Assembly (NCBI GenBank): GCA_009784815.1
Contig: WQXN01000001.1
Coordinates: 65,857 to 129,856, forward strand
Direction: 5' to 3'
Length of the DNA stretch: 64,000 nt
Source of the DNA: Alphaproteobacteria bacterium
GTDB lineage: Bacteria > Pseudomonadota > Alphaproteobacteria > Rs-D84
Shown: piece by piece, positions 34,623-38,341 of the stretch
Layout of the letters: every line of letters begins with the position of its first letter
Numbering within the stretch: position 1 is the stretch's first letter
Translations under genes and position numbers: made by a program
Notes under the pieces: model-generated
Told to the model about the DNA's origin: nothing
The model's database searches: none
The model's input: only the letters and a program-made list of their open reading frames with translations

Positions 34623-35400
34623 AAAAGGCCGGGTCAAGGGCGATCTGATGCCAGTAGATGCCAAGGTGCAGATGCGGTCCGGATGAGCGTCCAGTATTCC
34701 CTACCGTGCCCAAAACCGTGTTGTATAAGACTTCATTCCCAACTTCAACTTTAATCTCATCCATATGGAAATAGGCCGAAATTATGCGATTTCCATGGTC
34801 TACGAAAACGGTTTTTCCAGTCAGATAAAAATCCCCGACCAGCACCACCGTGCCGGGTGCTATGGTGGTGAATTTAGTGCCGATTTCGCCCGCGAAATCA
34901 ATGCCGTTATGAGGTCGTCTTGGCTGGCCGTTGAATACGCGCCTTGCTCCGTATACGCTTGTAATTCTATGAGCTTCCAGCGGTAAGGGCGGCCGCGCTT
35001 CCATGAAAAACACTCCGTCGCTAAGCACGTCCCGCGCCGCGCGTATCGCGTCGTTTTCCTGGGCTATTCGTTTCGCTATATCGTCGGGCCAGGTTACGAA
35101 TCTTTCCGGTACTGTTACGTGCTGTTCCGGGTATTTTCTTAGGCCCACCGAGTATTCAAAGGTTTGACACGCTCCGAATATTCCTTTTTTGCAGAATTTT
35201 ATCGATACCTTTTCAGGCGCGTCCATGGCCAAGCCTATGGTGAACACCCCGTTGTTCGATACTCGTTTATTGTTGAAGTAAACGTTGTGCGTGTCCGATT
35301 CCCCGAACAGAATTCCGCCCTGTTCGGCTACCCCGCAAAGTTTGGGCGCGGCGGCTTGGATTCCCGCGATCATGCAAAGCGACAGGCTATATATCCTCAT
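34612..35400 (-). CDS. M23-family metallopeptidase
   Basis: Signal-like N-terminus. HxxxD motif in PHNGIDFAG and HxH motif in GPHLHLGIY. Confidence 0.85.
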   Translation of the reverse strand: MRIYSLSLCMIAGIQAAAPKLCGVAEQGGILFGESDTHNVYFNNKRVSNNGVFTIGLAMDAPEKVSIKFCKKGIFGACQTFEYSVGLRKYPEQHVTVPERFVTWPDDIAKRIAQENDAIRAARDVLSDGVFFMEARPPLPLEAHRITSVYGARRVFNGQPRRPHNGIDFAGEIGTKFTTIAPGTVVLVGDFYLTGKTVFVDHGNRIISAYFHMDEIKVEVGNEVLYNTVLGTVGNTGRSSGPHLHLGIYWHQIALDPAFFIK

Positions 35401-36100
35401 GAATCTCGGCCTTATAGTTTTTCATAAATTCCGGGCGCACTATCAGTCTTAGGCTTTTCATTCGTTCCGGCATCATTTTCTGCGTTAGTCTTAATATGTC
35501 TTCAAGCGGCTTGATGGCGCCCGCGGCCGCGCAGACCTCGATCCCCCAATTCCCCCATACCTGGTAATTTTGAAGGCTGTCCAAAAAGTTATAGTAATTC
35601 TGGTCCAGCGTTTTGATATTCTTTGCGATCAGCATGATATTGTCCGCGCGCACTTCGTTCAAGTGGTTGAACGCGTCCGTCCAGCCGTTGTAGGGTACGC
35701 CGTCCATGCCAAGCGCGACCGAGAGTTTTTTTCCGAAAAATATTTCGTCCTTTATGGCCGACAAATTATTGGACAAAGCTTCAAGGTCTTGAAATTTAAC
35801 GTATAGCTGGACTTCGTTCGCTCCGCGTTTTAATGGCGCCGCCATATCCCGTACCAAGTCCTGGAAGCTTGATTTATCGGAATTCCACGCAAGCAGCGCC
35901 GATACGGAAACGTCCGATTTTTCAAGCCAGCTCCAGACCGCTGGCACCGACGAGGCCGCCACGGAAATTCGCGGAATTTTGAACTGCGCCGCCAAGGCCG
36001 CGGCTTGAATCAGTTCTGACGCGTCCTCGGGGTTCCAGCAGCAAAGATCCAGATGCGCCCTAAGATCGGTCAAAGTTTGCGAGAAGTCCATTTGTTTCAT
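35387..36100 (-). CDS. Hypothetical protein (237 aa); faint DeoC/aldolase-like pattern
   Basis: ORF overlaps the downstream M23 gene by 14 nt. No convincing motif. Confidence 0.5.
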   Translation of the reverse strand: MKQMDFSQTLTDLRAHLDLCCWNPEDASELIQAAALAAQFKIPRISVAASSVPAVWSWLEKSDVSVSALLAWNSDKSSFQDLVRDMAAPLKRGANEVQLYVKFQDLEALSNNLSAIKDEIFFGKKLSVALGMDGVPYNGWTDAFNHLNEVRADNIMLIAKNIKTLDQNYYNFLDSLQNYQVWGNWGIEVCAAAGAIKPLEDILRLTQKMMPERMKSLRLIVRPEFMKNYKAEIHEDI

Positions 36101-36130
36101 TCATATATTATAGCAAATAGTTTTCTAATA

Positions 36131-36139
36131 TGCTATAAT
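36131..36139 (+). promoter_or_regulatory. Extended -10 element (TGcTATAAT) 7 nt upstream of the ATG at 36147
   Basis: TG at 36131-32, TATAAT at 36134-39. No SD in between, which implies a leaderless or near-leaderless mRNA. Confidence 0.4.
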
Positions 36140-36146
36140 ATCGTTG

Positions 36147-37196
36147 ATGAAAAAGACTTTTCAGAAATTTTTAGAGTTCGCGTTTCTGCAGACTGTAGGG
36201 GTCATGGGATTTTCCGCCTATGTCAATTTGGCCTTCGGGTTTAATGTCTTCTCGATTTCACATTGGAAATTTTTTGCCGATATGCAGCTGGACGGGGGAA
36301 AAATATCAACGGCCTTTTACGCGGCGATTTTGTGTTTTGTCTTATATTCCGTTCTTGTCGTATGGTTTGTTCTGGTGCGGCCCCGCCGCAGGATATTTAG
36401 AAATAACAAAGTCGCTTTGATCCCGCCGTCCGGGCCGGGAGGATCGTCCGCCGAAGAAACGGTCGGCCTCGTGCCCTTGGGATTGACGCGTCCAAAAAGA
36501 ATGTCGCCAAGTTTTAATTCCGTCGCGCGGCCCGTTGAAACTACGCCGGCCTATCCGGTTTATACCGAACCGCCCGCAATATCAGCGCCCGTGCCTTCTG
36601 TTTCGGTTCCGCAGGTGGCGCCTTCTACTGTGGCGCCCGCACCGAAAGCGCCCAAGCAAAAGGAAGTCGAAATCGAATCTTCTTCAAAGCCCGATGTCTT
36701 AAGGATTATGGAATCCGCCGGATTCGGGGTCGCAAAAAACGCTCCTTTGATAAATGACGTGGCTTTGGATGTCTGGGCGACCAACGGAGATGAATTATAT
36801 ATAGGCCTGGTTTGCGGAGCTCATGGCAGGATCACGGCCAAAGAAGGCGGATCGTCAGTATGGTCTTCCGATATAGACGGAGAATTCAAATCTCCCGTTT
36901 CCGGAATCTATTCCGCGGCCGAATCAATTCGCAAGCTTATTTCGGAAACCCTTGACGAAGGGACCATAGTAAAAGTCACCGCCTTTGTGGTTATGGCGGA
37001 CGGCAATATAGAAAACTATGACAAGCTGTCCGGGATATTCGAAGCCTTCGGAGTCAGCGTATTCGGCCATGGCGTTCCCGAATTCGAAGCTTGGGCAAGA
37101 AAAATCGAGATGCTGCCCAAGAATGAATCATTTATCGAATACATGGACGCTATTGTGTCGTACTATGCGGTTGATGCCGAGGAAGGTGCGTCATGA
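36147..37196 (+). CDS. Membrane-anchored protein with a Pro-rich linker and a NERD-like C-terminal domain lacking the E-x-K signature
   Basis: Two N-terminal TM helices and a P/A/S/V-rich linker. The C-terminus DVALDVWATNGDELYIGLVCGAHGRITAKEGGSSVWSS...FKSPVSGIYSAAESIRKLI resembles the NERD layout, but reads GLV where NERD has ETK. Confidence 0.6.
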   Translation: MKKTFQKFLEFAFLQTVGVMGFSAYVNLAFGFNVFSISHWKFFADMQLDGGKISTAFYAAILCFVLYSVLVVWFVLVRPRRRIFRNNKVALIPPSGPGGSSAEETVGLVPLGLTRPKRMSPSFNSVARPVETTPAYPVYTEPPAISAPVPSVSVPQVAPSTVAPAPKAPKQKEVEIESSSKPDVLRIMESAGFGVAKNAPLINDVALDVWATNGDELYIGLVCGAHGRITAKEGGSSVWSSDIDGEFKSPVSGIYSAAESIRKLISETLDEGTIVKVTAFVVMADGNIENYDKLSGIFEAFGVSVFGHGVPEFEAWARKIEMLPKNESFIEYMDAIVSYYAVDAEEGAS

Positions 37197-37711
37197 TCCT
37201 ATTATTGAAAGACGCCGAACGGAGACAGGGCGATCTTGGCCTTGACGATCTGCCGCTGGTCGAGGTTGCGGCGGCTGTAAGGCCTTTGCCCAAGGGCTGG
37301 TTCGAAGAATTCAGACGCGAGCGCCGACGGCTTTTGACCGAGCTGGTAAGAAAAGACAAGGAAGAGCTTATGATGATGGGGCTTCCGATTGACGACATAG
37401 TCGCAATGCTGGGCGGCAAGAAAATTCCCGCAGGAGTTTCCGTAAAGTTCCGCGTGCCCCCAATTTACGGCGGCGATATTTCCGCCGAAAATATGTTTAT
37501 CTGCCGCGCGGCTTCCGAAGGCCGGGCGATAGATATATTTATAGCAGGGCAGGCAGGGGCGGAAAACTTTTTCGCGCCAAATCCGTCTAAAAGCGTTTAT
37601 GTCACTTCCATGAAATCCATGAATTCGCCCGGAGGAAATTCGACTTCCGACCGCATGTCGGATGTTTTGGCAACCGATGTGATGGGCTTGATCGGCGGAG
37701 GGAGGGCCTGA
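37193..37711 (+). CDS. Hypothetical protein with an HNH-like core lacking the catalytic His residues
   Basis: VKFRVPPIYGGDISAENMFICRAASEG aligns by eye to HNH xHHIxPxxxGGxxxxxNLxxLCxxCH, with FR in place of HH. ATGA overlap with the upstream gene. Confidence 0.55.
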   Translation: MILLLKDAERRQGDLGLDDLPLVEVAAAVRPLPKGWFEEFRRERRRLLTELVRKDKEELMMMGLPIDDIVAMLGGKKIPAGVSVKFRVPPIYGGDISAENMFICRAASEGRAIDIFIAGQAGAENFFAPNPSKSVYVTSMKSMNSPGGNSTSDRMSDVLATDVMGLIGGGRA

Positions 37712-37712
37712 T

Positions 37713-38141
37713 ATGAATTTCGATGAATTAAAATCCGAACTTGTAAAATACGGCGCCAAGGCCGCCCGCCCGGCCCCCGATGAATTGGTGCGAACTCAGG
37801 CCGCTTTGCAGGGTATGGGGAAACTTATGATGCCGGCCGGTCTTGTAGAATTTTTTCAAAACTTCGGCGCTGTGGTTCTTGGGGACGCCGAAATATTCGC
37901 CCCCATGCCGGCGGCTATAGGCAAGATGAGGACTCGCACCATAATCGAAGTCAACGGCGATATGTCGGCATCCACGCCGATCGGCGGCAAAACCGTGTTC
38001 GGAAGGAATCAGCTTTTTTGGCTTGTCGTGGGCGACGACTTTAAATTCCATCTTCTTGATCTTTACACGATGCGCCCCGCCAAGGCTTACGACGACGTTA
38101 ATCTTGCGGTAAGGGATTGTCTTCTTGTAGGGGCCTTATGA
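37713..38141 (+). CDS. Hypothetical protein, SUKH/SMI1-KNR4-like (weak)
   Basis: N-terminal ...APDELVRTQAALQGMGKLMMPAGLVEFFQNFGAVVLGDAEIF resembles the SUKH 'lP.dy..Fl...nG' opening. Starts 1 nt after the upstream stop. Confidence 0.5.
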   Translation: MNFDELKSELVKYGAKAARPAPDELVRTQAALQGMGKLMMPAGLVEFFQNFGAVVLGDAEIFAPMPAAIGKMRTRTIIEVNGDMSASTPIGGKTVFGRNQLFWLVVGDDFKFHLLDLYTMRPAKAYDDVNLAVRDCLLVGAL

Positions 38142-38341
38142 TCAAGCGTTCCGTTTCCATAAAAGGACATCCTACTTCCCTGGCCTTGGAGCCCGAATTT
38201 TGGGAAGCCTTGAAGGTCGCCGCGTCGCGACGTAAAATTTCCGTCCCGGCCTTGATCGGGCGAATAGACGAGGCGAGGGGGGCTTCTAATCTTTCTTCGG
38301 CCTTGCGCGTATTCTTATTAAACGAAGCGCAAGCGCAATAA
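38138..38341 (+). CDS. Ribbon-helix-helix protein (RHH_4-like)
   Basis: MIKRSVSIKGHPTSLALEPEFWEALKVAASRRKISVPALIGRIDEARGASNLSSALRVFLL matches the alphaproteobacterial RHH_4 pattern. ATGA overlap with the upstream gene. Confidence 0.75.
   Translation: MIKRSVSIKGHPTSLALEPEFWEALKVAASRRKISVPALIGRIDEARGASNLSSALRVFLLNEAQAQ

Follow-up and report, generated by a model that had tools for sequence, protein, structure and literature searches.

The subject of this analysis is a stretch of 64,000 nucleotides, called the window, from an alphaproteobacterium of the order Rs-D84 (assembly GCA_009784815.1, contig WQXN01000001.1). All positions are those of the whole stretch. Between 36144 and 38341, the window carries four translationally coupled open reading frames (ORFs) on the plus strand, named g1 to g4 here. 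With a probability of about one half, this operon is read as an exapted, catalytically inert module that would act as an accessory or client of VirD4, the coupling protein of type IV secretion systems (T4SSs). The reading comes from sequence comparison: a disarmed toxin domain and its putative immunity partner are found beside virD4 in one operon of other Alphaproteobacteria. Service to a T4SS is considered most likely, and a role as a weapon or in phage defence is considered less so.

g2 (37193-37711, + strand) encodes a protein of 172 amino acids (aa) that matches no Pfam family by itself. A profile built from 20 orthologues returned 391 matches among 1.84 billion representative proteins and reached canonical HH...N...H toxin domains at E-values of 1e-8 to 1e-11. 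In the distant matches, the aligned region is the C-terminal domain of a long protein that also carries PT-HINT or PT-TG pre-toxin domains. Pfam HNH scores these long relatives at or below its threshold, and shorter forms exceed the cut-off for HNH or Col-Pyo_DNase. Using hhalign, the alignment of Rs-D84 g2 proteins was matched to 14 canonical toxin domains over 134 columns (99.5%, E=1.1e-22). The canonical VHHK...N...P.H..(I/V)H corresponds to V-K-F-R...N...G...D in the window protein, where HH is replaced by KF (K85 and F86), the other two His residues are replaced by Gly and Asp, and only the structural GG and Asn100 stay. All four His residues of the HNH centre are absent in 20 of 20 Rs-D84 orthologues. 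The AlphaFold2 (AF2) model of g2 (pLDDT 84.1) has a beta-beta-alpha core composed of strands 82-86 and 101-105 and helix 106-118. HNH domains are at the top of its Foldseek list with E-values of at least 0.5; matches this weak, for g2 and for the C-terminal domain of g1, were used as consistency checks and not as proof. The C-terminal tail is disordered and clade-specific; it contains a GGNxTxDR motif and, after it, a helix. Profile and motif comparisons are strong evidence that g2 descends from the HNH (His-Me finger) DNase domains of colicin/pyocin-type polymorphic toxins. Because the four His of the HNH centre are lost, g2 is predicted to be a catalytically disarmed protein that can neither bind metal nor cut DNA.

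g3 (37713-38141, + strand, 142 aa) lies directly downstream of g2 in every locus examined, including the virD4-linked operons described below. The window protein has no Pfam match by itself. Among 20 orthologues, SMI1_KNR4 is matched by seven, SUKH_6 by three, and SUKH_5 by one, and one orthologue scores above the curated cut-off (25.8 vs 25.4 bits). Membership of g3 in the SUKH (SMI1/KNR4) superfamily thus follows by orthology, and g3 is the likely former immunity partner of g2.

g1 (36144-37196, + strand) encodes 350 aa from a TTG start codon, or 349 aa from the ATG at 36147. Direct reading of the protein gives two hydrophobic segments, residues ~10-33 (~36171-36242) and ~57-78 (~36312-36377), each flanked by stretches rich in Lys and Arg. 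Since these K/R clusters flank both putative transmembrane (TM) helices, the positive-inside rule suggests an inner-membrane protein with both termini in the cytoplasm and the intervening loop in the periplasm. This loop has a conserved FGFN.F...HW motif. A disordered linker rich in Pro, Ala, and Ser (residues ~95-178, ~36426-36677) leads to a conserved C-terminal domain (residues 179-350, 36678-37193). The AF2 model of this domain has a pLDDT of 94.8 and a pTM of 0.89, and its top Foldseek matches are an R2 endonuclease domain, NucS/EndoMS (probability 0.91), Hjc, EcoT38I, and MspJI, all with E-values of at least 0.026. A single-sequence search with the window protein gave no Pfam match, and Pfam NERD was weakly matched by 3 of 20 orthologues (best E-value 1.4e-3). 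The domain has the same strand-helix layout as NERD (PF08378), and its Foldseek neighbours are PD-(D/E)xK nucleases. However, the catalytic D...ExK is not conserved in the g1 alignments, where most orthologues have L-x-I-G-x in the equivalent strand, and the domain is tethered to the membrane through the two TM helices and the long linker. On the model and the alignments, assignment of the g1 C-terminal domain to an inactivated PD-(D/E)xK/NERD-like fold appears essentially right. In four genera of the window's family (L018, L019, L020, and L023), g1 lacks ~35 residues of this domain, corresponding to a G.I.A.E...W.S...F.SPV hairpin; the ORFs are intact and sit in the same operon.

g4 (38138-38341, + strand, 67 aa from ATG) is a ribbon-helix-helix (RHH) protein of the RHH_4 family (PF13467), matched at E=4.5e-24 and 84.7 bits against a cut-off of 25, over profile positions 2-66 of 67. 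In the raw sequence, the genes are joined by ATGA at 37193-37196 (g1/g2), TGAtATG at 37709-37715 (g2/g3), and ATGA at 38138-38141 (g3/g4). A preliminary description of this DNA had placed a coupled four-gene operon with ATGA, TGAnATG, and ATGA junctions at exactly these positions. It had also described, by eye, a two-TM protein with a Pro-rich linker and a NERD-like C-terminal domain lacking E-x-K, an HNH-shaped core without His, a SUKH/SMI1-like N-terminus, and an RHH_4-type DNA-binding protein. These calls are now backed by the AF2 and Foldseek results, weak NERD matches, and alignments for g1; by the profile search, hhalign, the motif table, and AF2 for g2; by the orthologue matches to SMI1_KNR4, SUKH_6, and SUKH_5 for g3; and by PF13467 for g4.

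Searches of other kinds were less productive. Single-sequence searches of NCBIfam and PADLOC with g1, g2, and g3 gave no real match, and an NCBIfam match to SemD among them (E=0.2) was rejected as low-complexity noise. Profile searches of PDB sequences with the g1 C-terminal domain, g2, and g3 gave nothing meaningful. A word-index search for homologues recovered the same genus only, and a single-protein search for related loci found nothing.

The link to type IV secretion comes from genomes outside Rs-D84. A class sample of 401 Alphaproteobacteria genomes was searched with the g2 profile, and strong matches were found in ~20 non-Rs-D84 genomes of 0.9-2.5 Mb. There, a g3 homologue directly follows g2, and g1 is represented by one or two homologues, 2.2-3.4 kb upstream of g2 on the same strand. 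The gene between g1 and g2 encodes a VirD4/TraG coupling protein, identified by T4SS-DNA_transf (2.4e-58) together with TraG-D_C and TrwB_AAD_bind. The order g1(-g1')-virD4-g2-g3 is present in 19 of 19 of these loci. The g1, g2, and g3 proteins of the virD4-linked and Rs-D84 operons are orthologous, with profile E-values of 1e-15 to 1e-37. The virD4-linked g2 begins with a Pro/Gln-rich N-terminal extension starting MW(D/E)W, and its motif, VH[LVIRMQ][KR]...HP[YF]H..[IL]H, has lost only the general-base His and keeps the metal ligands. Its tail, GG(N/T)x(S/T)xDR followed by a helix, is shared with Rs-D84 g2 and absent from canonical toxins. Occurrence of the orthologues in one operon with virD4 in these genomes points to a role in type IV secretion. 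No published description of the Rs-D84 operon or of its virD4-linked relative was found in a literature search.

VirD4 and the domesticated g2 also occur in the same genomes. An orthologous VirD4 was found in 26 of the 401 class genomes, and 25 of these 26 have a domesticated g2; in the 26th, virD4 is at a contig end. Neither protein was found in the remaining ~375 class genomes. Within Rs-D84, VirD4 is a single-copy protein (45-55% identical) in 41 of 41 genomes, and the T4SS channel genes VirB4 and VirB10 are found in 38 and 39 of the 41, respectively. The VirD4 of the source genome is encoded on another contig, among housekeeping genes.

Genomes with the g1-virD4-g2-g3 order (G058, G369, G238, G117, G146, G423, and others) usually carry a second VirD4 paralogue, 33-43% identical, elsewhere; it is not found in Rs-D84 genomes, which have one VirD4 each. 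The source genome has a weak g1 paralogue outside the window (contig C6, 26919-27902, - strand, 327 aa, profile E=3e-7), located between glycosyltransferase-like genes. It has a two-TM N-terminus with an F.F(N/D)...HW loop, a long, charged, low-complexity linker, and a shortened C-terminal domain, and may be the counterpart of the second g1 copy upstream of virD4 in other Alphaproteobacteria. Three further alphaproteobacterial loci (L142, L143, and L144) are tandem arrays of canonical HH-type g2 relatives. Some have repeated domains within one ORF and some have a SUKH gene after them, and they look like ordinary polymorphic-toxin cassettes.

Rs-D84 is a gut order that includes Candidatus Enterousia and its kin, and 40 of 40 sampled relatives have genomes of 0.5-1.1 Mb. 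These reduced genomes probably belong to partner-dependent bacteria (PMC12306168). The source genome is 0.83 Mb in 12 contigs. One copy of g2 is present in 39 of the 41 relatives and in each of the 28 genomes of high quality, with all six sampled families represented. Nineteen Rs-D84 loci were dissected, plus L028 and L120 through profiles. In the 17 hand-dissected loci that have all four genes, the genes share one strand and one order, and each stop overlaps or abuts the next start; an 18th (L034) has g1-g2-g3 only. By family, f1, f2, f3, and f5 have the complete set, collinear and with tight coupling, and f6 has g1-g2-g3 only. A profile screen of 80 further species-level loci of the window's family found all four genes, in order and on one strand, in every one. 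In family f1, the flanking genes orf237 and ybeY-lnt are syntenic too.

In a maximum-likelihood tree of g2, a branch with 98% SH-aLRT support splits the canonical toxins from the virD4-linked and Rs-D84 proteins, and Rs-D84 forms one clade (91%) whose subclades follow the taxonomic families. This topology indicates one domestication followed by vertical descent. The identity of g2 within the genus is 59-66%, vs 55-65% for ybeY-lnt. With amino-acid identities of 50-65%, synonymous sites are saturated. The GC content of the operon (0.49-0.53) equals that of the genome. Being single-copy and collinear at a fixed locus with host-like GC, the operon is a core, vertically inherited one and not a mobile conflict module.

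The preliminary description had suggested, from the combination of nuclease-fold relics, an immunity-like protein, and an RHH regulator, that the operon resembles toxin-immunity or defence systems. This holds for ancestry. It does not hold for a present-day conflict module, given that the operon is a single-copy core locus with vertical descent and no island features, that PADLOC has no match, and that both nuclease folds are inactivated. The co-conservation of the four genes, which had been proposed as a check, is borne out by the 17 dissected and 80 further loci. Anti-phage defence or abortive infection, with the inactive nuclease folds acting as sensors, is very improbable. NERD-like, HNH, SUKH, and RHH domains are a common vocabulary of conflict systems, which was the original argument for it, but PADLOC has no match at E-values up to 1 for any of the four proteins, there is no active effector domain, and the GC is host-like. 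Defence systems are patchy and island-borne, whereas this operon has a fixed position and is present in virtually all genomes of the order. A mobile island was rejected on the host-like GC, the conserved housekeeping flanks, and a check of the locus that found no tRNA near the operon.

Two side observations concern the operon in individual lineages. In one locus among L037-L116, ~3 kb is inserted between g3 and g4, and in all others the two genes abut. Families f2 and f3 have an extra gene upstream of g1 that is translationally coupled to it (for example L024:3508-4833, L025:3556-5076, L026:2778-4931, and L030:7859-10258). It encodes a low-complexity protein of 420-800 aa, rich in Glu, Lys, and Asn, with no Pfam match, and is absent in the window's family.

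g4 is the member of the operon with a separate history. RHH_4 is found class-wide, in 158 of 201 sampled Alphaproteobacteria, usually as one or two copies and mostly stand-alone; g4 is the sole RHH_4 of the source genome. It follows g3 in 80 of 80 loci of the window's family and in families f2, f3, and f5, and not in f6. Among the virD4-linked loci, an RHH_4 gene is upstream of g1 in only 2 of 19 and is absent from the other 17. Because RHH_4 is so widespread and so rarely near the virD4-linked operons, the coupling of g4 to g3 either is new in Rs-D84 or came about as a side effect of genome compaction. No literature on the function of RHH_4 (PF13467) was found. The same distribution bears on the idea that the operon is a type II toxin-antitoxin module with g4 as antitoxin and repressor. 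RHH proteins often serve as antitoxins, and the translational coupling would fit, but a family that is mostly stand-alone across the class, that is missing from the operon in f6 and in 17 of 19 virD4-linked loci, and that is accompanied here by no active toxin fold makes this scarcely credible.

A course of events can be proposed for the VirD4-associated module. The ancestor would be an older alphaproteobacterial operon with the order g1(-g1')-virD4-g2-g3, in which an HNH DNase and SUKH immunity pair was already domesticated beside VirD4 and a membrane-tethered, inactive protein with a restriction endonuclease fold. In the line leading to Rs-D84, virD4 relocated elsewhere in the chromosome, g2 shed its Pro/Gln-rich N-terminal extension and all four HNH His residues, and the class-wide RHH_4 gene joined the operon at its 3' end through translational coupling. 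In the present-day operon, g1 may position a cytoplasmic domain, or platform, at the inner membrane, and g2 and g3 may keep the old toxin-immunity interface as a stable heterodimer. Together, g1, g2, and g3 would form an accessory or adaptor sub-complex, or a dedicated client, of VirD4 in a T4SS that is scattered over the chromosome. g4 would be the operon regulator or a DNA-binding adaptor. Complex formation, the secretion role, and the role of g4 are all inferred.

Several points weigh against this proposal. virD4 is unlinked from the operon in the window and in the whole order: it lies within 6 kb neither in the window nor in any of 20 Rs-D84 loci, and the secretion role for Rs-D84 consequently rests on orthology and co-occurrence. 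The co-occurrence of g2 and VirD4 is clear but confounded by the shared ancestry of the clades. Rs-D84 g2 lacks the N-terminal extension, which is possibly the part recognized by VirD4, and the function could have changed on separation from virD4. RHH_4 is class-wide and may have entered the operon through genome compaction only. Lastly, the structure matches for the g1 C-terminal domain and g2 are weak by E-value.

A doubtful alternative is a housekeeping role independent of the T4SS. Here, an inert, membrane-tethered complex, made of old nuclease folds and a DNA-binding RHH protein, would for instance tether, sense, or organize DNA or the envelope, and the virD4 link would be history. The absence of linkage in 20 of 20 Rs-D84 loci, the loss of the N-terminal extension and of the metal site from g2 in Rs-D84 only, the addition of a DNA-binding RHH_4 protein, and the location of the operon among translation and envelope housekeeping genes would all fit. 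However, every genome that bears the module keeps the orthologous VirD4 and channel genes, the three non-RHH genes stay together exactly as in the virD4 operon, and nothing positive points to a particular housekeeping process.

It is unlikely that the T4SS still delivers g2 into adjacent or partner cells as an effector or toxin, one that would act by binding or by a new activity instead of cutting, with g3 as its immunity protein or secretion chaperone and g1 and g4 as accessories. The loss of all four HNH His residues, the one invariant copy per genome with neither cassette diversity nor orphan immunity genes, and a divergence like that of housekeeping neighbours (the g2 and ybeY-lnt ranges given above) speak against it. 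In its favour are the ancestry of g2 among genuine polymorphic toxins that bear pre-toxin domains (PT-HINT or PT-TG), the conserved toxin-then-SUKH gene order, and the conserved disordered C-terminal tail, which could be a translocation signal. Rs-D84 bacteria are, moreover, thought to depend on partner cells (PMC12306168).

The VirD4-associated reading can be set beside known systems. In type IV coupling complexes, adaptors assemble on the coupling protein, as in the Legionella DotL-DotM-DotN-IcmS/IcmW-LvgA complex, and RHH accessories dock on coupling proteins, as in TrwA-TrwB, TraM-TraD, and VirC2. The proposed arrangement is similar in that a coupling ATPase is joined by a membrane protein, two small adaptors in a heterodimer, and a DNA-binding RHH protein, but the likeness is one of functional analogy only; no homology to those adaptors in sequence or fold turned up, and no search aimed at it was made. 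The Rickettsiales vir homologue (rvh) is a scattered chromosomal T4SS and resembles the Rs-D84 situation in being a core, chromosomally dispersed VirB/VirD4 set in Alphaproteobacteria with reduced genomes. To our knowledge, rvh systems have not been described with a module like g1/g2/g3.

The polymorphic-toxin framework is reportedly that of Zhang, Iyer, and Aravind (2011/2012). Compared with an HNH toxin and its SUKH immunity protein, g2 is homologous, keeps the beta-beta-alpha core with its GG and Asn, and has a SUKH gene directly downstream. In contrast, it lacks the four His residues and any N-terminal trafficking or pre-toxin domain, has a new conserved C-terminal tail, and exists as one fixed, vertically inherited copy of a stand-alone 172-aa protein, in an operon with a membrane protein of restriction endonuclease fold and an RHH_4 protein. 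The homology is thus there, but with catalytic residues, delivery domains, and cassette diversity all missing, the operon should not be classed among toxin systems. As a system, its nearest relative is the g1(-g1')-virD4-g2-g3 operon of other uncultured gut Alphaproteobacteria, with which it shares orthologous g1, g2, and g3, the same order and coupling, the g2 tail, and the lack of a general-base His. The Rs-D84 operon differs in having virD4 elsewhere, a single g1, an appended RHH_4 gene, and a g2 without the Pro/Gln-rich extension and the three metal-binding His residues. It is a further-derived variant of that operon.

Few cases are documented in which a toxin-immunity pair became part of non-toxic cellular machinery. 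In this instance, a stepwise series runs from active HH...N...H toxins, through virD4-linked proteins without the general base, to Rs-D84 proteins without all four His. A bolder version of the VirD4-associated reading, held tentatively, is that a toxin and its immunity protein were exapted as obligatory inert subunits of an undescribed type IV coupling complex, composed of VirD4, a membrane-tethered dead PD-(D/E)xK protein, a dead HNH protein, and a SUKH protein, that is lifestyle-defining for partner-dependent gut Alphaproteobacteria. Equally tentatively, Rs-D84 could be the end state of such a complex. With the metal site lost, virD4 uncoupled, and an RHH DNA-binding protein recruited, it may handle a DNA or nucleoprotein substrate at the secretion channel. 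The operon is among the few lineage-specific genes kept in genomes of <1 Mb that have shed most biosynthesis. For that reason, it probably matters to the way of life of these uncultured inhabitants of the gut, which are presumed to depend on partners. As a component of a T4SS coupling complex, should it be one, it would represent a new type of substrate-recruitment apparatus and give a handle on what these organisms secrete.

The operon is flanked upstream by uvrB, an M23 peptidase gene, and the divergent orf237, and downstream by a ybeY-lnt fusion, miaB, and gatB, which converge on it. A tie to the window's type IVb pilus genes was rejected, as these lie 7 kb before the operon and show no conserved linkage. 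The 43-bp divergent intergenic region between orf237 and g1 (36101-36143) holds a putative operon promoter on the + strand, TGcTATAAT, with TATAAT at 36134-36139. A consensus scan for promoters and terminators performed no better than on shuffled sequences and did not report this TATAAT, because it has no -35 match. orf237 (35387-36100, - strand) has no Pfam family, is 50-63% identical within the genus, and keeps its position throughout family f1. It was not found at virD4-linked loci and was rejected as a system component for that reason. At the other end, the 3' end of g4 overlaps that of the convergent ybeY-lnt by 56 bp (38286-38341), and this overlap or near-overlap recurs among genomes of the same genus.

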